A DNA stretch of 64,000 nt from sequence record OW849071.1. One strand, written 5' to 3'. Origin of the DNA: a plasmid. The notes under the pieces are model-generated. The model did no database searches. It saw only the letters and a list, made by a program, of their open reading frames with translations, and was not told the DNA's origin. Positions within the stretch are counted from its first letter, which is position 1. Each line of letters begins with the position of its first letter. Positions 2,257 to 24,521 of the stretch are shown here, in pieces. Both the position numbers and the translations under genes were made by a program.

Positions 2257-2311
2257 GGTGATGCTACCAACTTGCTGATTTAGTGTATAATGGTGTTTTT
2301 GAGGTGCTCCC

Positions 2312-2587
2312 GTGGCTTCAGTCTCCGTCTGCTGTCCCTCCTGTTCCGCTACTGAAGGCGTGATGCGTAATGGCAAAAGTACTGCCGGGCATCAACGTTA
2401 TCTCTGCTCTCACTGCCGTAAAACATGGCAGCTCACCTTCACTTATGCCGCTTCTCAGCCCGGTACACACCAGAAAATCATTGATATGGCTATGAACGGC
2501 GTCGGTTGCCGTGCCACCGCACGACTAATGGGCGTGGGCCTCAACACCATTTTGCGCCATTTAAAAAACTCAGGCCGCAGTCAGTAA
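2312..2587 (+). CDS. insA: IS1 InsA.
   Basis: 91 aa, [40 protein letters not shown]..., the canonical IS1 InsA zinc-finger/HTH protein. Confidence 0.9.
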
Positions 2588-3009: not shown

Positions 3010-3024
3010 ATTGGAGTCATTACC

Positions 3025-3640: not shown

Positions 3641-3646
3641 AAACTC

Positions 3647-4573: not shown

Positions 4574-4629
4574 GGAAGTATCCTCGGTGAAGTCAAAGCC
4601 CCCCCACGCTATATGGGGGGAAGCGTCGG

Positions 4630-5874
4630 TTAGTCTTTCGGGAATGGGTTCGGTTCGATAAGTTCTGGCGTCTGATAAATCACGTCGTACTGCCCATCCG
4701 CACGAGCGCGACCGATAACCGTTTTGGACCACAGATGATGGTTATCATGGATGCGTACATACCCTTCCGGCGCATCTTTGAACTCAATACCGGGCGAGGC
4801 CTTACGAATTTTGTCCACGTCGAACGAGCCAGCTTTCTCAACCGCCGCTTTCCATAACCATGGGCCAAGATAGGCCGCCTGAGTGACATCGCCGATAACC
4901 ATGTCATTACCCCAGCGCTTTTTAAATGCGGCGACAAAGCTTTTATTTTCCGGATTATCCATACTCTGGAAATACTTCATCGAGGCATAGGCGCCGACGA
5001 TATTTTCGCCGCCAATACCGCGGATCTCATCTTCCGTGACGGAGATGGTCAGCAGCAGCGGTTTCTCCTGCGTCATATCGATCCCCGCCGCCTTCAATTG
5101 CTTATAGAAGGCCACATTCGAACCGCCGACAACAATGGCATAGATAACATCAGGCTTTTTGAGTTTTATTTTGTTAATAACCGAATTGAACTGCGTATTA
5201 CCGAGTGGGTAATAATCTTCGCCAACGACTTTCAGCCCCAGCTTTTCAATATGGTGACGGGCGATTTTGTTTGCAGTACGCGGCCAAATATAATCAGAGC
5301 CAAGCAGGTAGAAGGTTTTTGCATGTTTATTTTTAACTACCCAATCAATGCCGGAGATTATCTGTTGAGTAGCTTCCTGTCCGGTATAAATAACGTTTGG
5401 CGATTGCTCAAGCCCTTCGTAAAAGGTTGGGTAATAGAGCATGCCGTTATATTGCTCAAGTACCGGCAGCATGGCTTTGCGGGAAGCCGAAGTCCAGCCG
5501 CCGAAGATAGCGGCGACCTTATCACTGACCAGTAACTTACGCGCTTTTTCTGCAAAGGTCGGCCAGTCGCTGGCCCCGTCTTCCTGTACATATTCAATTT
5601 TTCTCCCCAGTACCCCTCCGGCAGCGTTAATCTGCTCAATAGCCAGCTTTTCAGCCTGAATCGAGCCGGTTTCACTGATGGCCATCGTGCCTGTGGATGA
5701 ATGCAGTATCCCGACCTTGACGCTATTGTCGGTGACCGCCAGGCCCGTGGTATTAACCACTGACGTCGCCGGGGCGGCGATGGCCGTATTAGCTGCCATC
5801 ATCAGGCCGGCAATCGCCAAAAGTTTCGCTTTGAGGCACGCCTGGTGAAACCGGCCTGGGCTCGGTATTTTCAT
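4630..5874 (-). CDS. Periplasmic substrate-binding protein of the urea/amide ABC transporter (UrtA/FmdD-like, LivJ superfamily).
   Basis: ~415 aa with an N-terminal signal peptide (LLAIAGLMMAANTAIAAPA). A type-I periplasmic-binding fold is inferred from family resemblance. It is the first gene of the urt-like operon on the minus strand. Confidence 0.7.
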   Translation of the reverse strand: MKIPSPGRFHQACLKAKLLAIAGLMMAANTAIAAPATSVVNTTGLAVTDNSVKVGILHSSTGTMAISETGSIQAEKLAIEQINAAGGVLGRKIEYVQEDGASDWPTFAEKARKLLVSDKVAAIFGGWTSASRKAMLPVLEQYNGMLYYPTFYEGLEQSPNVIYTGQEATQQIISGIDWVVKNKHAKTFYLLGSDYIWPRTANKIARHHIEKLGLKVVGEDYYPLGNTQFNSVINKIKLKKPDVIYAIVVGGSNVAFYKQLKAAGIDMTQEKPLLLTISVTEDEIRGIGGENIVGAYASMKYFQSMDNPENKSFVAAFKKRWGNDMVIGDVTQAAYLGPWLWKAAVEKAGSFDVDKIRKASPGIEFKDAPEGYVRIHDNHHLWSKTVIGRARADGQYDVIYQTPELIEPNPFPKD

Positions 5875-6124
5875 ATTGCTATGTGGCTGGGGTAAATCAC
5901 GAATGTTCATGGTAGCCCTCATAATCGTTATGGTTCATCTCAACTGGGGCTATCATGCGAGAGAGTCCATCAATCCAACAATGCGCGAGGTAACGCAGCG
6001 GCTACGTCATTTAACGTATTGGTTAATTCTCATAATCAAGACATGCTCACGTGCGCGATAACAAGAAAATACTAAGACGCGCCTGTGGTTAAGTTCAGCA
6101 TTTTTATCATTTCAGGAGCAGTGA

Positions 6125-9100
6125 ATGACCGTTCAGCAAAAGGCGTTTAAATCGCGCAGACGCTACAACCAGTGGGTGACCAATCAGACTCTCGAGGATT
6201 TTGCGCTCCGCTATACGCCGGTCTCGGCACGACGCTGGAGCGCAAAGCGAGTTGTTATGACAGCGCTCAGCGCAATTACCTTTTTGGCGCTTGAAGCCAT
6301 TGGCGGCGCGCTGACGTTAACCTATGGATTTAATTATGTGGTGGTGGCGGTTATCTTAGTTAGCATTATTATCTTTGCGCTATCAATGCCGATTGCCATT
6401 AATGCCGCAAAAAACGGCCTGGATATTGATTTGCTGACCCGCGGCGCCGGATTTGGCTACCTTGGTTCCACGGTGACCTCGTTAATCTATGCTTCTTTCA
6501 CCTTTATATTTTTCGCCCTGGAAGCCGCTATTATGGCGATGGCGCTTAATATGCTGTTTGGCCTGCCATTGCACTTTGGTTATCTGATTGGTTCCGTTGT
6601 TGTTATTCCCCTCGTCACCTGGGGGTTCACTTTTATTTCCCGTTTTCAGCAGTTCACCCAGTTTTGCTGGCTGGCGCTACAGCTATTACCCTTTATTTTC
6701 ATTTTAATACGTGAACATCATGTGCTGCAAAACTGGATCGACTTCCCTGGTTTTATTACAGCCCGCGATGGTTCTTTCGATTTCCTTCAGCTCGGCGCCG
6801 TCTGTTCCGTACTGCTCTCACTGGTAAGTCAAGTGGGAGAGCAGGTCGATCAGGTTCGTTTTTTACCAAAGCCACAACATCCGGCCCGCTGGAGATGGTA
6901 TGGCGCAGTAATTGCCGCAGGTCCGGGGTGGGTTGTCATCGGCGCCATCAAGATCCTGCTCGGCTCCTTCCTCGCCGTGCTGGCGTTTAATTACGGACTC
7001 GGCGCGGAACTGGCCAGCGAACCCACCCATATGTATCTGGTGGCATTTAGCTATGTCACCCATTCATCATCAACGCTACTGGCATTAACCGGTATTTTTG
7101 TGGTGCTCTCCCAGCTCAAAATTAACGTCACCAATGCATATGCCGGCTCGATCGCATGGTCTAATTTTTTCCTGCGCCTGACCCATCGTCATCCAGGGCG
7201 CGTCGTGTGGCTGTTTTTTAATGTCGGTATTGCTCTGTTATTGATGGAACTTGGCGTTTATCGCGTATTTGAGGATATCCTGGGCATTTATGCGGTGGCG
7301 GCCACATCCTGGCTTGGCAGCGTGGTTGCCGATATCACCTTAAATAAGTGGCTTAAATTACGACCAGCGGAAATAGAGTTTCGCCGGGCCTATCTCTACG
7401 ATATCAATCCTGTCGGCATCGGTTCGATGACGCTCGCCATGCTCTGCGGTCTCTCAGCCTGGATGGGATGGCTTGGTCATCCTCTACAGGTTTTTGCCTC
7501 AATGTTATCGTTGTGTCTGACGTTTATCACCGCCCCCTTCATCGCCTGGCTGACTCGCGGACGTTACTATTTTTCCCGGACGCCGGTGCAGGTCACGGCA
7601 ACGGAATGCTGTGTCTGCGGTAATTATTTTGAAAAACCAGAGATGAGCTATTGTCCTTTTTATCAGGGCAGTATTTGCTCACTATGTTGTTCTCTCGATG
7701 TCCAGTGCAACGATACTTGCAAACCTCATGCGCGCTATACGGAACAGGCTTCAAAGCTTATCGGGATATTTATTAAAGAAAAATCATTACGCAAAATTGA
7801 TCCCAGAGTGTGGAGTTTTATCAGCATTTTGCTGTTATTCAGTTCCGTCATCGGTCTGCTTTTGATGCTGGTTTTCGCTCAGATGCGCGATGAATTCGGC
7901 AGCGAGCAGGACCTTCTCGCCGCGGCGTTATGGAAAGTTTTTTTTATCCTGCTTATCGTAACCGGCGTCACCACCTGGCTATTTGTCCTGACAAATAAAA
8001 GTCGCCAGATTGCGCAAGAGGAATTGCGCCTGCAAAGCGACCGTCTGATGAAAGAAATTATTGCCCATGAAGCGACGGACCGGCAATTGCAGCAGGCAAA
8101 GGAAGATGCCGACGATGCTAATCAGGCCAAAAGCCGCTATCTCACCGGGATTACTCATGAACTCAGAACGCCGCTCAATGCGATGCTGGGTTATGCGCAA
8201 TTACTCGAACGTGCTGATGATATCCCTCCAGCCCGGCAGCGCGGTATCGGTATTATGCGCAGAAGCGGCGAGCATCTGGCTAATCTAATTGAGGGATTAC
8301 TGGATATTTCGAAAATTGAAGCGGGAAAATTAGAAATATATCGTGAAGAAGTGCGCATTGGCGATTTGGTGCAGCAACTGGTCGCCATGTTTGAACAACA
8401 GGCCAGCGATAAAGGACTGACATTTCACTACAACGCCCCACACTGGCTGCCCGAGGCGGTGATGACGGATGAGAAACGCCTCCGGCAAATTCTTATCAAT
8501 CTGCTTTCTAATGCGGTTAAATTCACGGACAGAGGCAGTGTAACCCTCGATTTCCAGTATCGTAGCGAGGTGGCGTTTTTCTCGGTTCACGATACCGGCA
8601 TCGGCATCGCCCCTGAGAACCTGGAACGCATCTTTAAGCCTTTCGAACGCGTATCCGGCGATAGTCGTCGGATCGGGACGGGCCTTGGGCTGACGATTAC
8701 CCGGCTTCTGACTTATATCATGGGTGGCGATCTCCAGGTGGAAAGCATCCGTGGCGAAGGCACAACGTTTAAACTCACCCTGATGCTGCCAAGCTATAGC
8801 GGGGATGCCTACCAACCCGCCGAGCCTGCGGTAATCACCGGATATCCAGGCAAGCGACACACCCTGCTGGTAGTTGACGATGATGAATCCCATCGGCAGC
8901 TGATGATGGATTTACTCACGCCCATAGGCTTCACGCTGCTAACAGCCGAAAATGGTCATGTCGCGCTACATTTAGCCCGGCAAAATCATATCGACCTTCT
9001 TCTTCTGGATGTTGCAATGCCTGAAATGTCGGGGTGGGAACTGCTACGTCAGTTACGTAATAAGGGACAATTAGCGCCGGTAATTATGATTTCTGCGGAA

Positions 9101-9505
9101 GCGGATGAGGGTAAATGCCGCCACTTCACTGGCGAAGGGGAAGTTCGCTACCTGGTTAAACCGCTGCGTTTCCCTTTACTACTGGAGAACATCGGTGAAA
9201 TATTGCATCTCCAGTGGCGCACGGAATGTCAGCCGCCAAAGCAGCCGGAAATACATGAACCACGCTCGCAGCTTACCCGTGTCCAGATTGAGTCGTTAAA
9301 AGAGATGGCCAGATTGGGTTATGTGAGAGGGTTTCGTGAACTGCTGGACAAACATATTTCCGCTAACCAGATCAGCAAAGCCGAGGGCGAAAAATTTGCC
9401 GAGTTGCTGAGGCGCTTTCGATTCAAAGAGATAGTCGAGAGTCTTGAACGCCCGGAGGGAGAGAAAAATGGCAATAGCAAAGCCGACGGTACTTATCGTC
9501 GATGA
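6125..9505 (+). CDS. Hybrid sensor histidine kinase/response regulator with an N-terminal ~480-aa NCS1-like (purine-cytosine permease-like) polytopic membrane domain and a Cys-rich segment.
   Basis: 1126 aa. A 12-TM-like hydrophobic N-terminal domain resembles CodB/NCS1 permeases. The Cys-rich stretch CCVCGNYFEKPEMSYCPFYQGSICSLCCSLDVQCNDTCK is encoded at 7607-7728. A coiled-coil, HisKA (ITHELRTPLNAMLGYAQLL), HATPase_c (NLLSNAVKFT...GTGLGLTITRLL) and a C-terminal REC domain (LLVVDDDESHRQL...LLLLDVAMPEMSGWELL) follow. Confidence 0.75.
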   Translation: MTVQQKAFKSRRRYNQWVTNQTLEDFALRYTPVSARRWSAKRVVMTALSAITFLALEAIGGALTLTYGFNYVVVAVILVSIIIFALSMPIAINAAKNGLDIDLLTRGAGFGYLGSTVTSLIYASFTFIFFALEAAIMAMALNMLFGLPLHFGYLIGSVVVIPLVTWGFTFISRFQQFTQFCWLALQLLPFIFILIREHHVLQNWIDFPGFITARDGSFDFLQLGAVCSVLLSLVSQVGEQVDQVRFLPKPQHPARWRWYGAVIAAGPGWVVIGAIKILLGSFLAVLAFNYGLGAELASEPTHMYLVAFSYVTHSSSTLLALTGIFVVLSQLKINVTNAYAGSIAWSNFFLRLTHRHPGRVVWLFFNVGIALLLMELGVYRVFEDILGIYAVAATSWLGSVVADITLNKWLKLRPAEIEFRRAYLYDINPVGIGSMTLAMLCGLSAWMGWLGHPLQVFASMLSLCLTFITAPFIAWLTRGRYYFSRTPVQVTATECCVCGNYFEKPEMSYCPFYQGSICSLCCSLDVQCNDTCKPHARYTEQASKLIGIFIKEKSLRKIDPRVWSFISILLLFSSVIGLLLMLVFAQMRDEFGSEQDLLAAALWKVFFILLIVTGVTTWLFVLTNKSRQIAQEELRLQSDRLMKEIIAHEATDRQLQQAKEDADDANQAKSRYLTGITHELRTPLNAMLGYAQLLERADDIPPARQRGIGIMRRSGEHLANLIEGLLDISKIEAGKLEIYREEVRIGDLVQQLVAMFEQQASDKGLTFHYNAPHWLPEAVMTDEKRLRQILINLLSNAVKFTDRGSVTLDFQYRSEVAFFSVHDTGIGIAPENLERIFKPFERVSGDSRRIGTGLGLTITRLLTYIMGGDLQVESIRGEGTTFKLTLMLPSYSGDAYQPAEPAVITGYPGKRHTLLVVDDDESHRQLMMDLLTPIGFTLLTAENGHVALHLARQNHIDLLLLDVAMPEMSGWELLRQLRNKGQLAPVIMISAEADEGKCRHFTGEGEVRYLVKPLRFPLLLENIGEILHLQWRTECQPPKQPEIHEPRSQLTRVQIESLKEMARLGYVRGFRELLDKHISANQISKAEGEKFAELLRRFRFKEIVESLERPEGEKNGNSKADGTYRR

Positions 9506-10388
9506 TGATATCAACACGGTAAGTATGTTGAATGACACGCTTGATGAAGCCGGTTTTACCGTTCTGGTCGCTCTGGAGGGTAATCAAGCCCTTTCGATAA
9601 CCAGCCAGATAACCCCGGATATCATTCTGCTTGATGCCGTAATGCCGCATCTGGATGGGTTTTCAACCAGTAAGCGCCTGCGGCAAAATCCGGGGCTGCG
9701 GCATACCCCGATTATTTTCATGACAGGCCTGAGTGATACGCAGAATATCGTTGATGCATTTGATGCCGGGGTGGTCGATTACGTAATTAAGCCGATACGC
9801 ACGGAAGAGCTGGTTGTCAGAATGCGTACCCACTTGCGGAACTCAAAATTAACGGTCAGTGCCTATAGCGCGATGGATTCCGTTGGCCAGACCTTATGTG
9901 TTTTTAGCAAAGAGGGGCAACTACGCTGGGCCACGCCCAATGCATGGCAACTGATGAAAAACTTCAGCGATACCGGGTATGAACCCAATAAAAAAATAGT
10001 AAACCGGATCATCGGTTGGCTGAACAATACGGAAGGTTTAAAAATACCCTTAGATCTTTCATCGCAAGGCATCGCTCTGAAATTCTATCTTTCACGCCGG
10101 ACCGCTGAAGGAGAAAGTTTGCTACGTATTGAAGAGATCAAAGGACATGAAGAAGTCGAAGCGGTGAAACGCCTGAAAAACAACCTAGGGCTGACGCAAC
10201 GAGAAGCCGAAGTCCTCCTGTGGATTGCCAGGGGAAAAACAAACCGCGAAATTGGCGATATTTTAAACCTTAGCCCCAGAACCGTGAATAAACACCTTGA
10301 AATTGTATTTCCAAAGCTGAGTGTGGACAATCGCACCGCAGCGGCAGCGTTGGCAATAAATTCGCTATATGCCAGGGAGAAAATGTAG
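9468..10388 (+). CDS. Response regulator with an N-terminal REC domain and a C-terminal LuxR/GerE-type HTH (NarL/FixJ family).
   Basis: MAIAKPTVLIVDDD...LLDAVMPHLDGF is the receiver. The C-terminus LGLTQREAEVLLWIARGKTNREIGDILNLSPRTVNKHLEIVFPKLSV is a LuxR-type HTH. Assuming the start at 9468, it overlaps the kinase stop by 38 nt, which suggests translational coupling. Confidence 0.8.
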   Translation: MAIAKPTVLIVDDDINTVSMLNDTLDEAGFTVLVALEGNQALSITSQITPDIILLDAVMPHLDGFSTSKRLRQNPGLRHTPIIFMTGLSDTQNIVDAFDAGVVDYVIKPIRTEELVVRMRTHLRNSKLTVSAYSAMDSVGQTLCVFSKEGQLRWATPNAWQLMKNFSDTGYEPNKKIVNRIIGWLNNTEGLKIPLDLSSQGIALKFYLSRRTAEGESLLRIEEIKGHEEVEAVKRLKNNLGLTQREAEVLLWIARGKTNREIGDILNLSPRTVNKHLEIVFPKLSVDNRTAAAALAINSLYAREKM

Positions 10389-10392
10389 CGAC

Positions 10393-10955
10393 AATGAGGC
10401 GTATTCGCGCAGACCTGCCCTGACATTTTTATCAGGCAGAACTGGCACCCTCATGTCCACGTCTCCGTCACCTGTGGCGGTATCGATGAGCACGGGAAGT
10501 GGAAGAAAATCAGCTTCCGTAAGGATGCCATGCGCGCCCGCTGGATGTGGAATATCCGCCAGCTTCTGCTGAGCGTCTGGTTCGAAGGCGTGGCCCTGCC
10601 GCTGTCCCTGTCACATATCACCACCGAATCACAATGGCGCAGTCTGATACTGACGGCCGGAGGCGACTACTGGCACGTCTACATGTCAAAAAAGACGGAC
10701 GGTGGCAAAAACACCGTGAAATACCTGGGGCGTTACCTGAAAAAGCCGCCGATAGCGGGCTCCCGGCTGGCGCACTACGCCGGAAGTGCCACGCTGAGCT
10801 TTCGCTACCACGACCACAACACGGGCGAGCTGGCCACAGAGACGCTGACGCAGAGGGACATCGTGGCGCGCCTGAAACAGCACATCCCGGAGAAGTTCTT
10901 CCGTAAGCGTACAGCGAGTGACCTGCCCCCAGGATTAGATACAACCGTCAGTTAG
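10393..10955 (+). pseudogene. IS91-family (HUH-Y2) transposase, 3' fragment.
   Basis: The frame reads ...NWHPHVHVSVTCGGIDEHGKWKKISFRKDAMRARWMWNIRQLLLSVWFEG...YLGRYLKKPPIAGSRL... with an HxH-type motif. There is no N-terminal portion. It begins immediately after the response-regulator stop. Confidence 0.55.
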
Positions 10956-14960: not shown

Positions 14961-15590
14961 GGTCTTGGGGCGGAAGCAGCTGGCACCGACGGCAAACATC
15001 TCCAATTCAATGCGCAGCTGGCGACAAACCATTTCCATCAATTAGGGCTGGCCGCCTTGTGAATTCCAGAAAACGATCTTGCGAATACCTGTGCGCCAGG
15101 CGCTTTTAGCCATTTCAAAACACACTTTCCCCAGAACATCATATGGCAACGAAAGTGTGTCAGGGTAAGCTAGGTGTTCGTCAGATTTACCTACAGGCAA
15201 AGTGGCCAACACCAGCATGGTAAATTGGCAGGCAGTAATTCTGCAGCTCGCTCAATAATGCTGGCATTAATGGCAGCAAACACCCGAACCAGCAGATGAG
15301 GTCCGTGTTGTTCTACGGCGCAAATAGGTAGTACTGCGACGATATTCGCCATATCCAGTTTACTGAATTCCCGCGTGGTGAGATCACACCACTAGGGAGA
15401 AGACGGTTTAAGCATGTTTACCTCCGGTTTTGTCTAACAATAAAAGATACGGTACGTTGCATTTAGGGCATTTTAGACCGGCTCTATGTCCTGCTATGTG
15501 CTAACTTTTCCAGTTTAATGGCCTCTCGTCGGGTTGTGTAGCAACAGTGTCGCCACCGGCGGAAATCCGCCGGTTTGAATGCTTTTTTGT

Positions 15591-17324
15591 TCAGCAGGCG
15601 ACGAGGTGCCCGTCGCCAAAATCGGTAAAGCGCTGCGGTACTCTCTGATAGCCGATGGGTTTGATCGGTTCTGGTCTTATCGGCATTGCGCTGGTGGCTC
15701 GGGGTTGCCGTCTTTGCTGAACGTCAGGTATAGGAACGGCGCTGAGCAAGTGCTGAGTATAAGGATGCTGCGGATGGTGCAACACTCGATCTCGTGGGCC
15801 GATCTCCACGAGCTGGCCGCCAAACATCACCGCTACCCGGTGGCAGATGCGCTCCACCACCGCCATATCATGGGAAATAAACAGATAGCTGAGCCGATAG
15901 CGCTGACGCAAATCTTCCAGCAGCGTCAGCACCTGCGCCTGTACTGAAACATCCAGCGCGGAAACCGATTCATCGGCGATGATCACTTTCGGGTTCAGCG
16001 CCAGCGCGCGGGCAATGCAAATGCGCTGGCGCTGGCCGCCGGAAAACTGGTGCGGATAACGCCGCATCGCTTCCGCTGGCAGGCCGACCTGCTGCAATAG
16101 CTGCGCCACCCGCTCCGTGCGCTGTACTGCGGGCATCTGCTCATGAATCAGCAGCGGCTCCCCAACCAGGTCGAAAATAGTTTTGCGCGGATTGAGCGCC
16201 GCCCAGGGATCCTGAAACACCATCTGCAAATCGCGGCGTACCGCTCTTAACGCCTCGTCCTTCAGGCCGTGCAGCTCCTGTCCGTTAAGCTGCGCGCTGC
16301 CGCTAAATGGCACCATATTCATCAGAGCTTTTGCCGTCGTCGATTTACCGCAGCCGCTTTCACCGACGATGCCCAACGTCTCGCCGGGGAAAAGATCGAA
16401 GCTGACGCCATCGACGGCATGGACTTCGCGACGCACGCGCAGGCCGTCGCCGCGCACCGGAAAGCGCACGCTGAGGTCGCGGACGCTGAGCAACGGTCGC
16501 GTCGCCTCGACCGGCGCCAGCGCGGGCGCCTGGCCCAGCACCGGTACCGCCTGCAACAGCTGGCGGGTATAAGCCGCCTGCGGCGAGGTAAACAGCGTTT
16601 TTGCCGGAGCCTGCTCCATGATTTTGCCGTGACTCATAACCAGCACATCATCGGCCATTTCTGCCACCACTCCCATATCGTGGGTGATCAACAGCAGGCT
16701 GGTGGAAAACGCCTGCTGCAGTTCGCGCATCAACTCGAGGATCTGCGCCTGAATAGTGACGTCGAGGGCCGTGGTCGGCTCATCGGCAATCAGCACCTGT
16801 GGCTGGCACAGCATTGCCATGGCGATCATCACCCGCTGGCGCATACCGCCGGAAAGCTCGTGCGGATACTGTTGCAGGCGCTTCTCCACATGACTGATTT
16901 TGACCGCGTCCAGCATCGTGCTGACCCGGCTGCGCCGTTCACGGCGGCCCAGCACTTCGTGGCGTTGCAGCGTCTCTTCCAGCTGCTGGCCCACCGTCAT
17001 CAGCGGATTGAGCGAGGTCATCGGTTCCTGAAAAATCATGGCAACCGACTTGCCGCGCAGCAACTGCATTTGCCGCTCCGGCAGGCTGAGCAAATCCTGG
17101 TTATCAAAAATAATCGCGCCGCCTGGAATCTGTGCCTCCTCCGGAAGCAAACCCATGATCGCCAGCGAAGTCAGCGATTTACCGCTGCCCGACTCGCCGG
17201 CAATGCACAGAGTTTTTCCCGGCCAGAGCGCAAAGCTGACGTCATCCACCACCCGCTGTGTACCAAACTGGATCGACAGGCGCTCGACCGAGAGCAGCGG
17301 CGCCGGAAATAGGACTGCTGACAT
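15591..17324 (-). CDS. ABC transporter ATP-binding protein with two fused ATPase domains (DppD/DppF- or GsiA-like).
   Basis: Two Walker A motifs (GESGSGKS; GESGCGKST), two signature motifs (LSGGMRQR; FSGGQRQR) and two Walker B motifs. The start is taken as [11 protein letters not shown] at 17324, preceded by an AGGAG ribosome-binding site. Confidence 0.8.
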
Positions 17325-17331
17325 AACGCTC

Positions 17332-18279
17332 CTAATTAAACACGCTGTTGGGAAAATAGAACGACACCACCCAGTTAGGCCGATCGACGATTTCGCTGAT
17401 GCGCAGATCGCCGCACACGGAGCAGAGCATATAGGCCTCTTCCGCCGACATCCCTTGTTCGCGGCACAGCGCATCGATGGTATAGCTTACCGCGTCGCGG
17501 GCGGCGGTCATCAGGTCAGGGCCAATGCCGGTGAAGGCGCTGTAGCCGTGCCGATCCAGATGTTGGGTCACTGGGCCAGGGGTGGCGAAACGCGGCGTTT
17601 TCAGCGGCATATCTTTAACCACTTCCAGCTTCACCACCACGTCCATCGCGCTTTCAATCGCCGTGCCGCAGACTTCACCATCGCCCTGCGCGGCGTGGGT
17701 GTCACCAATAGAAAACAACGCGCCTTCTACTTCCACCGGTAGCCATAATGTGCAGCCAGCGGCCAGATCGCGAATATCCAGATTGCCGCCCACGCGGCGC
17801 GGCGGCACCACCGAATGATGGCCCGCGGCAGCGGGAGCGACGCCGAGGGTACCGGCGAAGGGTTTCAGCGGTACGCGGCCATATCGGCCAAAGGCGCAGG
17901 GGGTTAAGCCCTGGCGGTCATATTGCCACAGCGTCAGCGCCGGATCAGAAAACTGATCGGCCAGCAGGCCGAAGCCCGGGATATTCGCAGTCCAGCCAAA
18001 GCCGCTGGGACGAAAGGATTCCAGCGTCACCTTTAGCGCATCGCCCGGCTGAGCGCCTTCCACATAGACCGGGCCACTGACCGGGTTGAGCTTATCAAAC
18101 GGCAGCGTTGGGATATCCGCTGCGGTAGAACCGGCGTTGAACCAGCCGTTAGCCGCATCCAGGCAGTGAAACTCCAGTTGGCTGCCGGAAGCTACGTGCA
18201 GGACCGGGCTCAGGCTGTTATCCCAGCCGAAATGATGTTGAGCATGATGAATGGTCTTCACCAGACAATTTTGGCACAT
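17332..18279 (-). CDS. Acetamidase/formamidase-family (FmdA_AmdA) amide hydrolase.
   Basis: 315 aa, identified by family-level resemblance to FmdA/AmdA-type amidases. It is embedded between the substrate-binding protein and the ATPase of the ABC operon. Confidence 0.65.
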   Translation of the reverse strand: MCQNCLVKTIHHAQHHFGWDNSLSPVLHVASGSQLEFHCLDAANGWFNAGSTAADIPTLPFDKLNPVSGPVYVEGAQPGDALKVTLESFRPSGFGWTANIPGFGLLADQFSDPALTLWQYDRQGLTPCAFGRYGRVPLKPFAGTLGVAPAAAGHHSVVPPRRVGGNLDIRDLAAGCTLWLPVEVEGALFSIGDTHAAQGDGEVCGTAIESAMDVVVKLEVVKDMPLKTPRFATPGPVTQHLDRHGYSAFTGIGPDLMTAARDAVSYTIDALCREQGMSAEEAYMLCSVCGDLRISEIVDRPNWVVSFYFPNSVFN

Positions 18280-18323
18280 CCTGACTCTCCTTTAAGCAGC
18301 GGCGCCGTCCCGGCGCCATCAAA

Positions 18324-19931
18324 TTATTTCAGTCCGATATAGTCGTAGTTGACTGGTACATGCACTGGATCGACATACAGCGCGTCCTCGCCCCCCATGC
18401 GTGCGGAATGTACGGTGTAGCGCTTCTCGTTGAATACCGGCACCCAGGGCGCGTCATCCATTGCAGTGATGAAGATTTTGCGCCAGGCTTCAATGCGCGC
18501 GTCCTGCTGGTCGGGTTTCACCATGCTGTCCGCCGCGGCCGCCTGCGCGTCCAGCGCTTTGTTGCAGTAGCGCGCCCAGTTCCAGCCGCCCTCTACCGCC
18601 CCGGCGCAGCCGAGGATCGGGCCATAGAAGTTGGAGGGATCCGGGAAATCGGCGATCCACGCCATGCCGCCGGACCAGACCATCGGCGCTTGGCTGGCGG
18701 AGCCGCCCGCCGCAATCACATTCGCCTGCGCCAGGGATTTGATGCTGGCGTGGATGCCCACTTTGGCCAGATCCTGCTGGATAGACTGAGCGATACGCGG
18801 CTGCGGATCGGTATTCATCACGTACAGTTCGGTAGCAAAACCGTTGGGGAAACCCGCTTCGCTGAGCAGTTGCTTCGCTTTTGCCGGGTCGTAGCTGAAA
18901 CCCTGATATGCCTTGTCATAACCGGGCATGGCGGGTGGCAGTGGCTGGTTGGCCGGCGCCGCGCGTCCATTAATGATGCGCACGATGCGATCTTTGTTGA
19001 CCGCCATGTTCACCGCCTGGCGGACTTTGAGATTATCGAAAGGCGGCAGCGTGGTTTTCATCGTCACGTAGCCGGTCTGCAACTGGTCGCCGGTGACCAT
19101 CAGGCCCTTATAGGCCGGGTTGTTTTTAAACGACAGAAACTGTGCGGGCGGTACGCCGTCGCCGGCAATATCCACTTCGCCTTTTTCCAGCCGCAGCAGA
19201 GCGACCGAGGGATCCTGTCCCATTTCGAACTTTATGTGATCCAGCCGCGGCACGCCGGCTTTAAAGTAGTTCGGGTTTTTGCGGAAGATCAGCTCCTGGC
19301 CCAGCTTCCACTCCTGGAGCTCAAACGCGCCGCTGCCGACCGGATGCTTGCCGAAGTCGGCACCCCATTTCTCCACCTCCTCACGGGGAACCACCGAGGC
19401 AAAGTTCAGCGCCAGCACATGCAGGAAGGTGGCGTTGGGCTCTTTCAGAGTGATTTTTACCGTATGATCGTCGACGACCTCGATACCGCTCAGGGTCGTG
19501 CTTTTACCGCTAGCCTCCTCGTCATAGCCCGCGATGGGACTGAAGAACCCGGCGCCCGGACTTTGGGTTTTCGGGTTGACTGTGCGTTCCAGAGAATATT
19601 TCACGTCCGCCGCCGTGACCTCGCGGCCGTTGTGGAATTTCACCCCTTTGCGTAGCACAAAGGTGTAGACCTTGCCGTCCTCGGAAATGGCGTAGCTCTC
19701 CGCCAGGTCGTTCACCAACTCGGTGGTGCCGGGACGATAGTCCATCAGGCCGTCGAACAGGCTTTTGATCATCGACCAGTTTTGCCAGTCATAGCCAATG
19801 GCCGGATCGAGGGTCGCCACGTCGTTCTGGTAGGTCACCACGATATCGCCGCCGGTCTTCTCGTCAGCCTGCGCGCCATAAGAGAAACAGGCCGCGGCCA
19901 CCGCCATTGTCAATAACGCATTTTTCATCAT
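18324..19931 (-). CDS. Periplasmic substrate-binding protein, family 5 (DppA/OppA/NikA-like).
   Basis: 535 aa with a signal peptide MMKNALLTMAVAAACFSYGAQA; size and context match SBP_bac_5 proteins. Confidence 0.75.
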   Translation of the reverse strand: MMKNALLTMAVAAACFSYGAQADEKTGGDIVVTYQNDVATLDPAIGYDWQNWSMIKSLFDGLMDYRPGTTELVNDLAESYAISEDGKVYTFVLRKGVKFHNGREVTAADVKYSLERTVNPKTQSPGAGFFSPIAGYDEEASGKSTTLSGIEVVDDHTVKITLKEPNATFLHVLALNFASVVPREEVEKWGADFGKHPVGSGAFELQEWKLGQELIFRKNPNYFKAGVPRLDHIKFEMGQDPSVALLRLEKGEVDIAGDGVPPAQFLSFKNNPAYKGLMVTGDQLQTGYVTMKTTLPPFDNLKVRQAVNMAVNKDRIVRIINGRAAPANQPLPPAMPGYDKAYQGFSYDPAKAKQLLSEAGFPNGFATELYVMNTDPQPRIAQSIQQDLAKVGIHASIKSLAQANVIAAGGSASQAPMVWSGGMAWIADFPDPSNFYGPILGCAGAVEGGWNWARYCNKALDAQAAAADSMVKPDQQDARIEAWRKIFITAMDDAPWVPVFNEKRYTVHSARMGGEDALYVDPVHVPVNYDYIGLK

Positions 19932-19940
19932 CTTCCCCTG

Positions 19941-20861
19941 CTACTTTTTGACATCAATGCGCGGATCGACCCACGGCAGCACCAGATCCGCAATAAGGTT
20001 GCCGCCAACAATGGCAACCGCTGACACGGTGGTTACCCCGACAATCACCGGGATATCCACCTGTTGAATCGCCTGCCAGGCCAGCTGACCGATACCCGGC
20101 CAGCCAAAGACCGATTCGACTACCACCAGTCCGCCCATAAAAATGCCGATATCAATGCCTATCATCGGAATTAGCGGCAGCACGGCATTCGGCAGCACGT
20201 GACGCAGCAGTACGCGGGTTCGGCCCAGCCCTTTGGCCCGCGCGGTACGGATAAAATCCTGATGCAGCACCTCAATCATCGACGAGCGCAACATGCGTGA
20301 ATACCAGCCGCTGCCGAGCAGGCCGAGGGTTAGCGCCGGTAGCGCCAGATGGCTGAAGCCGCCATAGCCTCCCATCGGGAACCAGTTGAGTACCACGGCG
20401 AAAAGATAGAGAAAAAGCATCGCGGCGATGAACTGCGGCGCCGAAACACCGATAAAGGAGAGCGCCATCAGAAGCCGGTCCGCCAGCCCGCCGCGTTTTA
20501 ACGCCGCCAGGGTGCCGAGTGCGATCCCCAGTACCAACTCGCAGAGAATACCCGCCGCCATCAGCTGCAGTGACGGCCCGATACGGGCGGAAACCAGTTC
20601 ACTCACTTCGCTGCGCTGAATAAACGAGCGTCCCAGATCGCCGTGCAGCAGCCCCTGCAGATAACGCCAATATTGCTGATAAAACGGAAGATCCAACCCC
20701 AACTGATGGCGGATGTTTTCGACTACTTCCGGCGTGGCACTGCGCCCGGCGATTTGGCGCGCTGGATCGGCGGGCAACATAAACAGCAGCAAATAGCAGA
20801 TCAACGTAACGCCAAGCAGGATCAGCCCGGCATGCAACAGACGTTTTCCCAGAAATAGCAT
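19941..20861 (-). CDS. ABC transporter permease (DppB/OppB-like).
   Basis: 306 aa, polytopic, with the EAA-like loop region typical of BPD_transp_1 permeases. Confidence 0.75.
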   Translation of the reverse strand: MLFLGKRLLHAGLILLGVTLICYLLLFMLPADPARQIAGRSATPEVVENIRHQLGLDLPFYQQYWRYLQGLLHGDLGRSFIQRSEVSELVSARIGPSLQLMAAGILCELVLGIALGTLAALKRGGLADRLLMALSFIGVSAPQFIAAMLFLYLFAVVLNWFPMGGYGGFSHLALPALTLGLLGSGWYSRMLRSSMIEVLHQDFIRTARAKGLGRTRVLLRHVLPNAVLPLIPMIGIDIGIFMGGLVVVESVFGWPGIGQLAWQAIQQVDIPVIVGVTTVSAVAIVGGNLIADLVLPWVDPRIDVKK

Positions 20862-21709
20862 TAGTTTCGTCCTTTTAAGCCGGGATCGAGGGCGTCGCGC
20901 AGGGCGTCACCAGCGATATTGAAAGAGAGCGACAGCAGCACAATCGCCGCGCCGGGAAAGAACACCAGCCAGGGAGCCGAAGTAAAATAGCTCTGGCTTT
21001 CAAAGATGATGTTGCCCCAACTCGGCGTTGGCGGCTGTACCCCCACCCCGAGGAACGATAGAGTAGCTTCCAGCAGGACTGTGGTGGAGATGCCTAGTGT
21101 GGCCCAGACCAGCACCGTTGGCGCCAGATGTGGAATTAAATGCACGCCGAGAATACGCAACGTTCCGGCCCCCAGGGTGCGTTCCACGGCGATAAAGTCG
21201 CGGGCGCTAAGCGCGCTAGTTTCGGCGTAGATAACCCTGGCGATCTGCACCCAGTTCACCATGGCGATCACCAGGGACACGATCCAGACACTTGGCTGGA
21301 AAATCGCCGCCAGGGCAATCGCCAGCAGCAGTGCGGGAAACGCCATCATCAGATCGGTAAAGCGCATCAGCAGCCCTCCGATACGCCCCTGCAGATAACC
21401 TGCGCTAAGCCCTACCAGGACGCCGATCAGTACTGCAGTGCCGTTGGCGACAACACCGATGAGTAACGAAGTACGAGCTCCGTAAATTAAACGCGAGAAG
21501 AGATCGCGTCCCAGCAGATCGGTTCCCAGCCAGTAAGTGCTGTTGGGAGAAAGCGGTGCGCCTTCCAGGCTCAGTCCCTCGACAAACTGTTCATCGGGAT
21601 CGAAGGGGGTGAGCCAGGGGGCAAACAGCGCGCTCATCACCACCAGGAGAATAAACAGCAGCGAGAGCAGCAGGGCTGGCCGGCGCAGAAAATATCCGAC
21701 TCTATTCAT
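20861..21709 (-). CDS. ABC transporter permease (DppC/OppC-like).
   Basis: The start is taken as MNRVGYFLRRPALLLSLLFIL at 21709. This ATG overlaps the amiR-like stop in an ATGA arrangement. Confidence 0.7.
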   Translation of the reverse strand: MNRVGYFLRRPALLLSLLFILLVVMSALFAPWLTPFDPDEQFVEGLSLEGAPLSPNSTYWLGTDLLGRDLFSRLIYGARTSLLIGVVANGTAVLIGVLVGLSAGYLQGRIGGLLMRFTDLMMAFPALLLAIALAAIFQPSVWIVSLVIAMVNWVQIARVIYAETSALSARDFIAVERTLGAGTLRILGVHLIPHLAPTVLVWATLGISTTVLLEATLSFLGVGVQPPTPSWGNIIFESQSYFTSAPWLVFFPGAAIVLLSLSFNIAGDALRDALDPGLKGRN

Positions 21710-22299
21710 TGTGCTCCCCGCTTGCCGGACGACATTCGTAGCAGCCACTTCTGCGCCACCTGTGCCACCGACTGGTTCGTACACATTGATTCCGAGCGCA
21801 GGCGAACCCATGCCTGTTGTTCATCAATACTTTCCGCTTGCATCTGGGCCGCCAGAGCTTGGGTAATCTGCGGCATTGCTGCCAGACGCTGGCGCAGTAG
21901 CATCTGTTGCTGTTGAATGTCATGCAACTGCTGACGCAGCCCCACTGCCATCATCAGGGTGGTATAGATGGCTCGCTGTGTAATAGGCTTGGTAAGGAGC
22001 GCTGTTGCCCCTAACTCCAGCGCGCGCTGTACCTGGTAAAGTCCCTCATGTGAGGTCAGCGCGATCACCGGTATTCCGGCCAGATTGATCTGGCTCAGGG
22101 TTAGCGGGCTGGCGAATGCCTCCAGTTCCACCAGTACTGCACAGGGGGTGAGAGGAGGTAAAGCCTCATCTCCGGTCAGGTGATGCCAGCGGATACCCAT
22201 CCGCGTCAGGTTTTTTTCCAGCGCTTCGCGACTCCTTGCTTCACAGTCTACCAGCAGGAGCGGCTGAGCATCTAAATCCGGGGACAGCAGCGTTTTCAT
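21706..22299 (-). CDS. AmiR-like response regulator with an ANTAR RNA-binding antiterminator domain.
   Basis: 197 aa with a pseudo-receiver N-terminal domain. The C-terminal coiled-coil/ANTAR segment (...QQLHDIQQQQMLLRQRLAAMPQITQALAAQMQAES...) resembles AmiR of P. aeruginosa. Its start overlaps the amiC-like stop by 4 nt. Confidence 0.65.
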   Translation of the reverse strand: MKTLLSPDLDAQPLLLVDCEARSREALEKNLTRMGIRWHHLTGDEALPPLTPCAVLVELEAFASPLTLSQINLAGIPVIALTSHEGLYQVQRALELGATALLTKPITQRAIYTTLMMAVGLRQQLHDIQQQQMLLRQRLAAMPQITQALAAQMQAESIDEQQAWVRLRSESMCTNQSVAQVAQKWLLRMSSGKRGAQ

Positions 22300-23423
22300 T
22301 TAACAATCCTCAGAGCAGGTCTGGCTGCAACCGTTCGGCTTTCACGTAGCTCGGTCGCGGAGAGATAGGGATCGGGCATAACCGGCAGCGGTTCGCGATG
22401 CAGTATCTGAAAGCAAGTTTGTTGCAACTCAGCGATGTAGCAGGGCAAACAGGCGTGGTTGTTTCGAGCCATTACTGAGCGAGCGCCCGGAGAATCAACG
22501 TCGTGCTGACGATGCAGTGCCGCCAGCACCGCACCCGGCTCGCTGTTTCCGGCCTCGCGCAGGCTATTGGCAAACAACCTTACTGCCCGCCAGCCGCCGA
22601 TATAGTAGTGGGAGATGCGCTGTGCGCCATGTTGCAGGTGCTGCCGCGCGCAAAAATCGAGATCGACGCTCTCAAAAAACGGTCCGCAGGAAAGCAAACG
22701 TACCGCCCTTAGTGGCGCGACTTCGGCGACTTCGGCTTCGGTAAAATTACAGCTGAGCACCGCTAACGTCCGCCGATCGCGAAGACAGGCCTCGTCCAGT
22801 GCGCGCAGAAACGCATAAGAGGTTTCGCCTACCAGGTTATTGAGTACAAAATCTACCTCTGTGCTGAGAATCGCCTCAATCAACTCGGTCACGTTGCTGT
22901 TTCTCAGGTGCAGATATTTTTCGCCCACCACCGTACCGCCGGAACCTTCCACTACCTCACGGGCGATACGATTGCTTTCCCAGCCCCAGACGTAGTTAGA
23001 GCCGATCAGCCAGGAGCGATTTCCGAACATATCCAGCGCCAGCCGCAGGAGTGGCAGCAGAGTCTGGTTCGGACAACCGCCCAGATATACGACCTGCTCG
23101 CAGCTCTCGAACCCCTCGTAAGGACAGCCATACCACAGCAGCAGGTTATGCTGCTCCAGGTCCGGGATAATCTCCTTCCGACTGGCAGAGGTAATGGTTC
23201 CGAAGATATGGCGGATGCCGTGAGCGATAAAGGTGCTCACCGCTTCACTGTAGGCTGCGAGTTCACCCGCAGGGTTGATATGTCGGGCCCGCAGCTGAAA
23301 AGGATAAGCAGGATCGGCATTGATTTCCTCTAAGGCATGGCGCGCACCAAGCAGTGTGCTGTTCGCCAGGTGGCTGTAGGTACCTTCTGTGGAAAGCAAA
23401 ATTCCAATATCAATAGTTTGCAC
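22296..23423 (-). CDS. AmiC-like ligand sensor (periplasmic-binding-protein-fold amide sensor; negative regulator of AmiR).
   Basis: 375 aa, MQTIDIGILLSTEGTYSHLANSTLLGARHALEEINAD...; LivJ-like type I PBP fold without a signal peptide, like AmiC. It has a GTG start and sits immediately upstream of the amiR-like gene. Confidence 0.65.
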   Translation of the reverse strand: MQTIDIGILLSTEGTYSHLANSTLLGARHALEEINADPAYPFQLRARHINPAGELAAYSEAVSTFIAHGIRHIFGTITSASRKEIIPDLEQHNLLLWYGCPYEGFESCEQVVYLGGCPNQTLLPLLRLALDMFGNRSWLIGSNYVWGWESNRIAREVVEGSGGTVVGEKYLHLRNSNVTELIEAILSTEVDFVLNNLVGETSYAFLRALDEACLRDRRTLAVLSCNFTEAEVAEVAPLRAVRLLSCGPFFESVDLDFCARQHLQHGAQRISHYYIGGWRAVRLFANSLREAGNSEPGAVLAALHRQHDVDSPGARSVMARNNHACLPCYIAELQQTCFQILHREPLPVMPDPYLSATELRESRTVAARPALRIVK

Positions 23424-23441
23424 GTATGTTTGCTCTCTGCA

Positions 23442-23484
23442 TTAATAAAAAAGCCTGATTGTCCTTATTAGGACAATCAGGCTT
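23442..23484 (-). terminator. Rho-independent terminator-like hairpin in the leader directly upstream of the amiC-like gene.
   Basis: On the minus strand: aagcctgattgtcc-taataa-ggacaatcaggctt. This is a perfect 14-bp stem with a 6-nt loop, followed by ttttttatt. It ends ~20 nt before the GTG start at 23423. Confidence 0.6.
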
Positions 23485-24011
23485 CATTACCTGTCGATAT
23501 TTAATGGATTCAAGGCTTAAGGGTTGCCCCTGCTTGCATATACCCGACATGAAAAATTCATGCCATTTTTAAAGCACAGTTAAATCAATGGATTATTTAT
23601 TTTTGGAGACACTTTTGCACCAATGGGATGCGGCTTGCTCAGTTATGGTGCAATTTTCTGATGCAGTCTGGTCTCTTCAACATGAGGTGGAGTAATGCAC
23701 ACCTGTTTTAGTTCCACGCACTTTTTGAGAGTTCCGGTTTTTCAGCCATCAGCAGGTGATCCTCCGGCGTCAGGTTATTCAGGGATTCATGGGGACGCTC
23801 TGGATGGAAGATCCTCGTGACGAAGCCGAATTTGCCCCCGGCCACGTGCTTTTTTTCGAGCGTAATGTTGTCCATGCATTACCAACCCTTCTTGAAGAAC
23901 CCGTAATATTTCTGTCATTGGCCAGCCCTCGTCGTGCTCCTGAAGATATTACCTTTGTTGACCCGAAAGATGGCACTGCCAGAACCTTTATGGCCAGAAA
24001 TAATGAGTCAG

Positions 24012-24493
24012 CATAAAGGGCCAGAACCAAAGGTAAGGTGGAGCGGATGGTGAAATACCTCAAGGAGAACTTCTTCGTCCGGTACCGCCGGTTCGACAGC
24101 TTCGCCCAGGTTAATCAGCTACTGGAGCAGTGGATGGCTGACGTTGCCGACAGGCGGGAACTTCGCCAGTTCAGGCAGACACCGGAACAGCGCTTCACGC
24201 AGGAACAGGAGCATCTGCAGCCGTTGCCGGATACGGACTTCGATACCAGCTACTTCGATATCCGTCATGTCTCCTGGGATGGCTATATCGAGGTTGGCGG
24301 AAACCGTTACAGCGTGCCGGAAAGCCTGTGTGGCCAGCCGGTATCAATACGGATTTCGCTGGATGATGAACTGCGGATCTACAGTAATGAGCAGCAGATG
24401 GCATCGCACCGTCTCTGTTCGGCTGCATCCGGCTGGCAGACCGTGCCGGAGCATCACGCCCCGCTCTGGCAGCAGGTCAGTCAGGTGGAACCC
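24012..24493 (+). pseudogene. IS21-family IstA transposase, 3' fragment.
   Basis: ...ARTKGKVERMVKYLKENFFVRYRRFDSFAQVNQLLEQWMADVADRRELRQF...HHAPLWQQVSQVE matches the C-terminal ~155 aa of IS21 IstA as I recall it. It is 5'-truncated, and its C-terminal end is replaced where an IS903 end abuts. Confidence 0.7.
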
Positions 24494-24521
24494 GAAATCT
24501 GATTTATTCAACAAAGCCGCA
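24493..24521 (+). repeat. Solo IS903 terminal-repeat remnant (~29 bp).
   Basis: cccgaaatctgatttattcaacaaagcc is identical to the right end of the IS903 copy at 54709-54737. No IS903 body accompanies it. Confidence 0.7.

Follow-up and report, generated by a model that had tools for sequence, protein, structure and literature searches.

Gene content and organization of the operon

A 64,000-nucleotide stretch of plasmid DNA (sequence record OW849071.1), called the window below, carries on its minus strand a seven-gene operon that opens with an AmiC-like sensor gene and an AmiR-like regulator gene, and that probably encodes a system for the uptake and hydrolysis of L-alpha-amino acid amides. The list of open reading frames (ORFs) showed seven intact, tightly packed frames spanning positions 15591-23423 (Table 1). 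When Pfam gathering cut-offs were applied to all seven proteins, every claimed domain scored above its cut-off (27.3 bits for ANTAR), including the ANTAR and AmiC-type domains at 21706-23423 and the FmdA_AmdA domain of the hydrolase. A first-pass annotation of this DNA had read the locus as an AmiC/AmiR-headed operon joining an ATP-binding cassette (ABC) importer of the Dpp/Opp type to an FmdA_AmdA hydrolase, and the Pfam scores bear this out. It had also reported tight packing with 4-nucleotide (nt) overlaps at three junctions; the packing is as described, but only the amiC/amiR and amiR/permC junctions are 4-nt ATGA overlaps, whereas permC/permB is a 1-nt TAATG overlap. The remaining three junctions are gaps of 7-44 nt.

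Table 1. Positions in the window of the seven genes and of the predicted control elements.
Feature	Position	Strand	Remarks
Two NtrC-like palindromes, candidate enhancers	23616..23652	minus	TGCACCATAACTGAGCA (23652-23636) and CGCATCCCATTGGTGCA (23632-23616); each matches 11/14 of TGCACCA-N3-TGGTGCA
IHF-like candidate site	23583..23595	minus	TAATCCATTGATT; read off the sequence; lies between promoter and NtrC-like sites; fits WATCAANNNNTTR when reversed
Sigma-54-like promoter	23551..23565	minus	TGGCATGAATTTTTC (GG-N10-TC); predicted transcription start near 23539
Leader element P1	23511..23536	minus	CAAG/CUUG outer stem round a variable GC hairpin (AGGG-GCAA-CCCU), with conserved unpaired UAAG(Y)
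P2, putative antiterminator mini-hairpin	23478..23493	minus	CAGGU-[AAUGAA]-GCCUG; hexaloop with A at position 1 and G at position 4
Intrinsic terminator	23444..23485	minus	16-bp hairpin and U-run; its end lies 21 nt upstream of the sensor gene's GTG start
AmiC-like ligand sensor	22296..23423	minus	375 aa, GTG start; Peripla_BP_5, 259 bits
AmiR-like ANTAR antiterminator	21706..22299	minus	197 aa, pseudo-receiver N-terminus; ANTAR, 32.8 bits
OppC/DppC-type ABC permease (permease C)	20861..21709	minus	282 aa from the RefSeq start; OppC_N and BPD_transp_1
OppB/DppB-type ABC permease (permease B)	19941..20861	minus	306 aa; BPD_transp_1_N and BPD_transp_1
Family-5 periplasmic binding protein, MeAmi_SBP orthologue	18324..19931	minus	SBP_bac_5, 346 bits; signal peptide
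Cytoplasmic FmdA_AmdA-family amidase	17332..18279	minus	315 aa; FmdA_AmdA, 192.6 bits
Fused double ABC ATPase, DppD/DppF type	15591..17324	minus	577 aa from the RefSeq start; two ABC_tran and oligo_HPY

In the window regulator, AmiR_N (22 bits) and Response_reg (25.5 bits) stayed under the Pfam cut-offs. AmiR_N passes its cut-off in orthologues of this protein, and the best match of the regulator in the PDB is AmiR (1QO0 chain D, E = 6e-7). Judging by RefSeq, Shine-Dalgarno sequences and homologue lengths, the starts of permease C and of the ATPase lie downstream of the maximal-ORF starts, and that of the ATPase is backed by an AGGAG Shine-Dalgarno sequence. Inspection of the N-termini revealed a Sec signal peptide (...AQA|DE) on the binding protein and none on the sensor or the amidase, suggesting that the substrate would be captured in the periplasm and imported, and then sensed and hydrolyzed in the cytoplasm.

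Two hairpins without a U-run were noted between and behind the genes. Between the binding-protein and amidase genes, a gap of 44 nt holds a perfect GC hairpin (GGCGCC-GGGAC-GGCGCC, 18301-18317, minus strand), which may stabilize the upstream mRNA segment and raise the level of the binding protein; in other species this gap varies from 0 to 300 nt. The second hairpin (ACCGGCGG-ATTT-CCGCCGGT, 15555-15574, minus strand) lies 17 nt past the stop codon of the ATPase gene and may serve as an RNA-stability element or mark where the operon ends.

Conservation of the seven-gene arrangement

As the first-pass annotation had suggested, the arrangement was surveyed across genomes. The sensor alignment was scanned against one genome per species, which gave 594 relatives, and 80 of these loci were fetched. 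The results showed that about 70 of the 80 species genomes sampled, from Gamma- and Alphaproteobacteria, carry the full cassette in identical order between unrelated flanks; among those with different flanks are Affinibrenneria, Pseudomonas, Mesorhizobium, and Brucella anthropi. Since the gene order recurs across species with unrelated flanks, it is not a chance arrangement. The transporter proteins and the amidase of other genera are 55-89% identical to those of the window, whereas the sensor is only 36-63% identical. The values for other genera are 66-86% for permease C and 64-89% for permease B, against 91-100% and 98-100%, respectively, among the closest enterobacterial loci. Amidase homologues of 70-83% identity occur in Enterobacterales, Pseudomonas, Burkholderiaceae, Vibrio, and many Alphaproteobacteria.

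A few loci depart from this pattern. Paraburkholderia sp. J10-1 (locus L037, 8882-11733) has the leader RNA described below (59 bits), the sensor and the ANTAR regulator, followed by a distant FmdA_AmdA amidase (35% identity) and no ABC transporter; the regulatory unit can therefore be combined with other enzymes. In four Rhizobium/Allorhizobium loci (L053, L068, L070, and L083), a different Dpp-type transporter (30-36% identity) comes after the sensor, with its genes ordered binding protein, permease C, permease B, ATPase. An amidase of 65-67% identity comes last in L068 and L070, and no amidase was detected in L053 and L083. This variant may be a sister system with another substrate. In Mesorhizobium (L005/L006, 759-4590 and 12795-13709), the cassette is directly preceded by hydantoinase A and B genes and has a CN_hydrolase gene downstream, which together possibly form a local cluster of nitrogen-scavenging functions for cyclic amides and amides.

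The binding protein is an orthologue of MeAmi_SBP

The binding protein was found to be 69.8% identical over 510 aa to PDB entry 8UPI (E = 2.5e-253), whereas its identity to Dpp and Gsi proteins is only about 30%. Entry 8UPI is MeAmi_SBP of Mesorhizobium sp. AP09, the characterized representative of 610 SBP_bac_5 proteins that Smith, Frkic, Rahman, Jackson, and Kaczmarski described in 2024 in exactly this operon architecture (bioRxiv 10.1101/2024.02.22.581678). MeAmi_SBP binds glycinamide (50 µM), L-alaninamide (1.5 µM), and L-tyrosinamide (0.19 µM), and L-serinamide co-purified with it from Escherichia coli into the crystal; it requires the alpha-amino group of the ligand, which forms a salt bridge to Asp413, and its pocket is shrunk by a loop insertion (10.1101/2024.02.22.581678). 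No binding was found for about 100 di- and tripeptides, glutathione, octopine, acetamide, or free amino acids (10.1101/2024.02.22.581678). In the alignment, all seven ligand residues (Y32, W34, M408, W410, I411, D413, and W435) and all three Ca2+ residues (D45, D49, and Y207) of 8UPI are identical in the window protein.

The operon is, then, a member of a cassette type first described in 2024 and not a new system. The first-pass annotation had held the substrate to be uncharacterized and had implied that the arrangement was novel, and neither point stands: Smith et al. 2024 defined the family, and Begmatov et al. 2026 described the plasmid operon. Opine-like and dipeptide-like substrates, which it had also proposed, are disfavored, since the orthologue binds neither octopine nor peptides. 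Its proposal of a larger amide-containing substrate was right in pointing away from simple aliphatic amides; 'larger' applies only loosely, as the ligands are single amino acids with a C-terminal carboxamide.

The amidase

In the Pfam scan, the operon hydrolase matched FmdA_AmdA (PF03069) only, with no CN_hydrolase match. Its score against the NCBIfam formamidase equivalog NF045496 was 121.5 bits, the cut-off being 500, and only the C-terminal half of that model matched well; the protein has 315 aa as compared with about 407 aa for the formamidase FmdA. The closest structures are uncharacterized structural-genomics 'acetamidases' of about 300 aa (2II1, 5UBU, 2F4L, and 3TKK).

A 314-aa orthologue with 67-68% identity to the window amidase occurs in Brucella/Ochrobactrum anthropi and its relatives, and the B. 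anthropi gene is part of the seven-gene cassette as well. The calculated mass of two Ochrobactrum cluster representatives is exactly 33,870.0 Da. An L-selective amidase, LamA, was reportedly purified and cloned from Ochrobactrum anthropi NCIMB 40321 by Sonke et al. in 2005, and is said to be an FmdA_AmdA protein of 314 aa with a calculated mass of 33,870. It reportedly cleaves a broad range of L-alpha-amino acid amides, and also alpha-hydroxy and N-hydroxy amino acid amides, whereas simple aliphatic amides and dipeptides are said not to be cleaved. Secondary descriptions of LamA yielded a one-line confirmation only, and no cluster-member name identifies LamA explicitly. Going by the reported length and mass, the O. 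anthropi orthologue in the cassette is very probably LamA, and the window amidase would probably be an L-amino-acid amidase orthologous to it. As the enzyme of the cassette, LamA would supply the biochemical half that Smith et al. 2024 listed as missing.

The AmiC-like sensor

The sensor aligned over its full length with AmiC of Pseudomonas aeruginosa (1PEA, E = 3e-38). A 2026 AmiC engineering study listed the residues within 5 Å of acetamide, identified Tyr83 and Thr233 as a steric gate, and found that Y83H, Y83T, or Y83C brings about a response to (S)-2-aminobutyramide, an alpha-amino acid amide. The window sensor keeps eight of the 14 AmiC pocket residues (S85, R88, Y104, P107, Y108, E109, Y150, and V206), among them those that contact the amide (S85, Y104, P107, and Y150). 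Both gate residues are altered (Y83 to Ile77 and T233 to Asn226), as are M84 (Thr), T106 (Cys), Y152 (Trp), and P153 (Gly). Ile77, Thr78, Ser79, Arg82, Tyr144, Trp146, Gly147, and Asn226 do not vary among four cassette sensors that are distant from one another. These residues suggest that the sensor retains the carboxamide contacts and could admit an alpha-substituted amide.

A conserved leader RNA upstream of the sensor gene

The sensor gene is preceded by a conserved leader that is described here for the first time. The whole window gave no Rfam match at gathering thresholds, and the leader is in no curated family. Leaders of 30 gamma- and betaproteobacterial species were aligned; because MAFFT misregistered the inner P1 hairpin and the Paraburkholderia row, only core pairs were counted.

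The intrinsic terminator is by far the strongest terminator-like site in 15000-24200. Nine of its 14 pairs changed on both sides while 95% of the cells were paired, and the observed covariation was reached by none of 500 shuffles. The leader has a folding energy of -39.1 kcal/mol (z = -5.6), and the terminator is its default state. In the P2 helix, 98% of the cells were paired (CG25/UG3/GU1, AU25/GU2/GC1, and UG27/CG3), and the hexaloop reads A-N-Y-G-A-A in most loci. The 3' strand of P2, GCCUG, is also the base of the terminator 5' arm (terminator hairpin 23485-23450), and in Ectopseudomonas a U to C change is matched in both the P2 5' strand and the terminator 3' arm. P2 therefore matches the definition of an ANTAR target as an A1/G4 hexaloop overlapping the base of a terminator (PMC3369931, PMC8934654), a single hexaloop now being regarded as the minimal target.

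P1 is present in the minimum-free-energy fold. Its outer stem was 96% paired, with compensations of CG to GC and CG to AU and covariation to GAAG/CUUC and CAAAG/CUUUG, and two of the three inner-stem pairs changed on both sides. The linker to P2 measures 11-38 nt in the 30 leaders and 16 nt in the window. The 3' half of P1 (UAAGYCUUG) resembles that of P2 (GAAGCCUG), and one might speculate that P1 is a non-canonical second ANTAR site.

Three other pairings were considered and set aside. The inner P1 hairpin is not a canonical hexaloop, its loops being variable. The Pseudomonas leaders (L014-L036) contain an extra GCGC...GCGC hairpin between P1 and P2 that directly abuts P2; it was rejected as a P1 hexaloop, with loops of 3-9 nt and no counterpart in enterics, and could act as a spacer or a site of pausing. 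An alternative antiterminator, in which the P1 3' segment (AAGYCU) would pair with the 3' arm of the terminator, was not adopted, because the variable Y (C, U, or A) does not preserve this pairing.

A covariance model built from the alignment had a single match in the 64-kb window (23445-23539, 83 bits). It found exactly one strong match per locus, always just upstream of the sensor gene, also in ten loci that were not in the seed. The alphaproteobacterial leaders have diverged and follow the same logic, with GGC-[A-N5]-GCC overlapping a GCCCCG...CGGGGC-U terminator. Terminator and ANTAR-type hexaloop hairpin are thus positioned as the ligand-gated antitermination proposed in the first-pass annotation requires, and this is the likely mode of control.

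Predicted promoter and candidate upstream sites

The promoter description is likewise new here, and its elements are assigned a putative function. The promoter scan of the region gave no sigma-70-like site on the minus strand. The sigma-54-like pattern had one match in the 64-kb window versus 0.76 expected by chance, which alone is not significant; the argument is for this reason carried by its conserved position. In 28 of 31 gammaproteobacterial loci, TGGCA[CT]-N5-TT[TC]C stands at a fixed distance, about 12 nt upstream of the leader RNA, and the other three loci have a looser form. NtrC-like sites were found 57-147 bp upstream of the -24 element in 22 of the 31 loci, versus a mean of 1.7 (maximum 6) in 300 shuffles. 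The activator sites of an NtrC/sigma-54-dependent promoter are expected some 80-150 bp from the start, and the two palindromes of the window are candidates for this role.

Proposed function and alternative explanations

The best-supported function of the operon is the uptake and hydrolysis of L-alpha-amino acid amides as a source of nitrogen, and also of carbon, under antitermination of the AmiC/AmiR type. We consider it likely that the seven genes form a self-contained nitrogen-scavenging module of the MeAmi type for these compounds, controlled by a sigma-54-type promoter and antitermination. In such a module, the binding protein would capture the amino acid amide, its conserved Asp reading the free alpha-amino group and backbone carbonyls the carboxamide, and would pass it to the two permeases and the fused ATPase; the cytoplasmic amidase would then convert it into the L-amino acid and ammonia. 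Initiation at the sigma-54-type promoter with its NtrC-like sites would make transcription dependent on nitrogen limitation, and most transcripts would end at the leader terminator. Imported amide bound by the sensor would release the AmiR-like ANTAR dimer, which would bind the P2 hexaloop hairpin, and probably also the related P1, and so keep GCCUG out of the terminator stem and let the polymerase pass on to the seven genes. The terminator precedes the regulator genes too, and the circuit would for this reason be positively autoregulated. Beyond the observed gene content, synteny, and conservation of residues and of RNA structure, we infer the inducer, the RNA-protein contact, and the dependence on sigma-54 and NtrC. 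The proposed function predicts growth on amino acid amides as the nitrogen source.

Several points count against this proposal. The binding data come from the Mesorhizobium orthologue, and the Klebsiella proteins are known by sequence; the link to LamA consists of the reported description of that enzyme and a mass match; and free amino acid amides have no known natural source. The sole experiment on the plasmid operon found acetamidase activity in lysates of acetamide-grown cells, and the operon was labelled an acetamidase operon (PMC13209695). As to control, all loci have TC or CC at -12 in place of the near-invariant GC, although TGGCA[CT] at -24 and the spacing are conserved. P2 varies little, and its support is mostly conservation rather than covariation. 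Neither P1 nor the linker contains an A1/G4 hexaloop in the aligned leaders, P1 not being a canonical hexaloop hairpin, and the alignment used for the pair counts came partly from eye-guided trimming.

The alternative that survives best is that the true substrate is a larger or different natural product with an L-alpha-amino-carboxamide end, for which simple amino acid amides are surrogates; candidates are C-terminally amidated peptide fragments, an amidated breakdown product of an antibiotic or siderophore, and alpha-hydroxy or N-hydroxy acid amides. We know of no abundant natural pool of free amino acid amides. The affinity of MeAmi_SBP grows with side-chain size, from Gly-amide to Tyr-amide, and Smith et al. 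state that other compounds with the same motif may bind and could be the true ligands (10.1101/2024.02.22.581678). On the other hand, the reduced volume of the MeAmi_SBP pocket excludes dipeptides, and the co-purification of L-serinamide from E. coli shows that such molecules exist in cells. We therefore regard this alternative as unlikely.

Less probable still, and in our view rather implausible, is an operon for acetamide or other short-chain aliphatic amides, an analogue of amiEBCRS in which the ABC transporter imports acetamide and the FmdA_AmdA protein is an acetamidase. The homology to AmiC and AmiR and the Pfam family name 'acetamidase/formamidase' would fit this. Begmatov et al. 2026 described, on plasmid pKOS9W-1 of Klebsiella sp. 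KOS9, an 8-kb 'acetamidase operon' of amiC, amiR, four ABC genes and one amidase that is >99% identical across Enterobacteriaceae plasmids, and it held the only 'amiE' that the authors found; lysates of KOS9 grown with acetamide showed acetamidase activity (PMC13209695). That assignment joined homology to an activity without a knockout, and the activity is not tied genetically to this gene. On such plasmids, and in the window too, there is an AmiF-type formamidase together with a Urt-like transporter, and this module could explain acetamidase/formamidase activity in lysates of plasmid-bearing Klebsiella. Moreover, the orthologous binding protein does not bind acetamide and requires an Asp413 that is identical in the window protein, the amidase stays at 121 bits against the 500-bit equivalog cut-off, and the gate residues of the sensor differ from AmiC toward admitting alpha-amino amides. 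LamA is said, in the work of Sonke et al. cited above, to be inactive on simple aliphatic amides, and a Dpp-type importer is not normally needed for small uncharged amides.

A Gsi/Dpp-type importer for glutathione, dipeptides, or oligopeptides that has an accessory hydrolase, as implied by Prokka-style annotation (GsiA, GsiB, GsiC, and GsiD), by Gsi gene names in some GenBank records and by the top NCBIfam models of the transporter parts (GsiA, GsiB, DppA, Opp, and Nik), deserves hardly any credence, as the equivalog scores are far under their cut-offs (GsiB 251 versus 594, DppA 236 versus 1005, and GsiA 647 versus 1077), the binding protein is 70% identical to MeAmi_SBP rather than to Dpp or Gsi proteins, and MeAmi_SBP, with its shrunken pocket, gave no thermal shift with the peptides or glutathione.

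L-alpha-amino acid amides accordingly remain the preferred substrates. A wider proposal, that the locus combines a new, non-canonical class of ANTAR target behind NtrC and sigma-54 with a natural alpha-amino-amide sensor, as a selectable trait on epidemic plasmids, is tentative and, taken as a whole, slightly more doubtful than even. If it is true, the leader would consist of one canonical A1/G4 hexaloop at the terminator and a second site with a RAAG-Y-CU(U)G motif beside a nested hairpin, and the Ile/Asn-gated sensor would correspond in nature to the engineered AmiC-Y83H biosensor. The presence of the locus on hundreds of epidemic Klebsiella IncF plasmids would in that case indicate that nitrogen scavenging is a selectable trait, for example from amidated peptide ends in gut or wastewater. 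The leader analysis also suggests that the locus offers a natural biosensor for alpha-amino amides, ready for use.

Plasmid context

The operon and its control region lie in an 8.4-kb block that hundreds of Klebsiella IncFIB/IncFII plasmids share with 100% identity. At least 80% of the block is covered by 641 PLSDB records, 726 matching records are from Klebsiella, and the block is also present in a few E. coli genomes. In those plasmids it stands between a Urt-like transporter/formamidase module and the fec and lac operons. Insertion sequence (IS) remnants lie on both sides, and its G+C content of 58-62%, above that of most of its surroundings, fits acquisition as one unit.

The regulatory region is directly preceded by two such remnants, an IS3-type integrase of which the C-terminal piece is left (23708-23875, minus strand) and a fragment of the IS21-like kind (24038-24502, plus strand). 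As only about 55 nt separate the NtrC-like sites from this break, the mobile block has retained the full control region. On the other side are two short 'creatininase family' pseudogene fragments (about 15042-15352 in the window, and further down; 17643-17953 in locus L001), followed by an IS5 element. We rejected the idea that these fragments are the relic of a longer operon, as in Affinibrenneria, Pseudomonas, Mesorhizobium, and Brucella the ATPase gene is the last of the cassette and the flanks are unrelated; the fragments are probably debris of the previous genomic context. The other amide locus of the window comprises a gene for a 335-aa 'formamidase' and urtABCDE-like genes (about 1360-7130; L001 3961-9730), adjoined by a divergent 3.4-kb 'ATP-binding protein' gene (about 7450-10830).

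The plasmid copies of the operon, identical at 100% in more than 600 sequenced plasmids of Klebsiella and other Enterobacteriaceae, sit near fec, lac, urea/formamide, and heat-resistance modules under conflicting labels, namely glutathione importer, acetamidase operon, and formamidase. The acetamidase and glutathione labels, found in databases and in one paper, are probably wrong, and the tie to an L-amino-acid-amide system, based on the binding-protein residues, the LamA orthologue, and the gate residues of the sensor, corrects them.

Comparison with known systems

The operon shares its gene order and Pfam content with the MeAmi operon (signal-less Peripla_BP_5, ANTAR, two permeases, SBP_bac_5, FmdA_AmdA, and ATPase). 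It differs in being plasmid-borne in Enterobacteriaceae, whereas the published set comes mainly from soil Alphaproteobacteria, and its regulators are only 38-43% identical to the alphaproteobacterial ones. The gammaproteobacterial leader combines the sigma-54-like promoter with P1 and P2, whereas in the alphaproteobacterial leader the GGC-[A-N5]-GCC P2 directly follows a CCGGC/GCCGG hairpin; a sigma-70-like TTGAC box occurs among the alphaproteobacterial leaders only in Mesorhizobium L005. Going by its description, the pKOS9W-1 operon is the same as that of the window, but the family evidence does not support its AmiE (EC 3.5.1.4) and acetamide-uptake labels, the enzyme being FmdA_AmdA. With LamA the comparison runs through the O. 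anthropi orthologue, to which the window enzyme is related at the identity given above without being identical.

With respect to the dual-hexaloop ANTAR target of Ramesh et al. 2012, P2 has the expected features and a canonical P1 mini-hairpin is missing. This agrees with Smith et al. 2024, who found no canonical dual-hexaloop ANTAR target for the cassette (10.1101/2024.02.22.581678). The leader analysis fills the gap left by that study, which identified no ANTAR target.

The likeness to amiEBCRS of P. aeruginosa lies in the pairing of a cytoplasmic sensor of the periplasmic-binding-protein fold with a pseudo-receiver ANTAR antiterminator, in the leader terminator before the first structural gene, and in the position of the regulator genes within the regulated transcript. 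The window regulators come first, whereas those of amiEBCRS follow the enzyme. AmiE, which belongs to the nitrilase superfamily, is absent and the hydrolase is of the FmdA_AmdA family instead; AmiB and AmiS are absent from the operon and a Dpp-type ABC importer takes their place; in the sensor, Ile and Asn replace Tyr83 and Thr233, the gate of the acetamide-sized pocket of AmiC; and the window promoter is probably of the sigma-54 type.

In its control, the operon resembles nasF of Klebsiella oxytoca, where the ANTAR regulator NasR acts behind an NtrC/sigma-54 promoter. The window sensor is a separate AmiC-like protein, whereas NasR is a NIT domain fused to ANTAR, and in the window P1 is non-canonical and the -12 element is TC. 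The operon would share the two-tier scheme of nasF, with nitrogen control at initiation and substrate-specific ANTAR antitermination at a leader terminator, and in both the hexaloop hairpin overlaps the base of that terminator.

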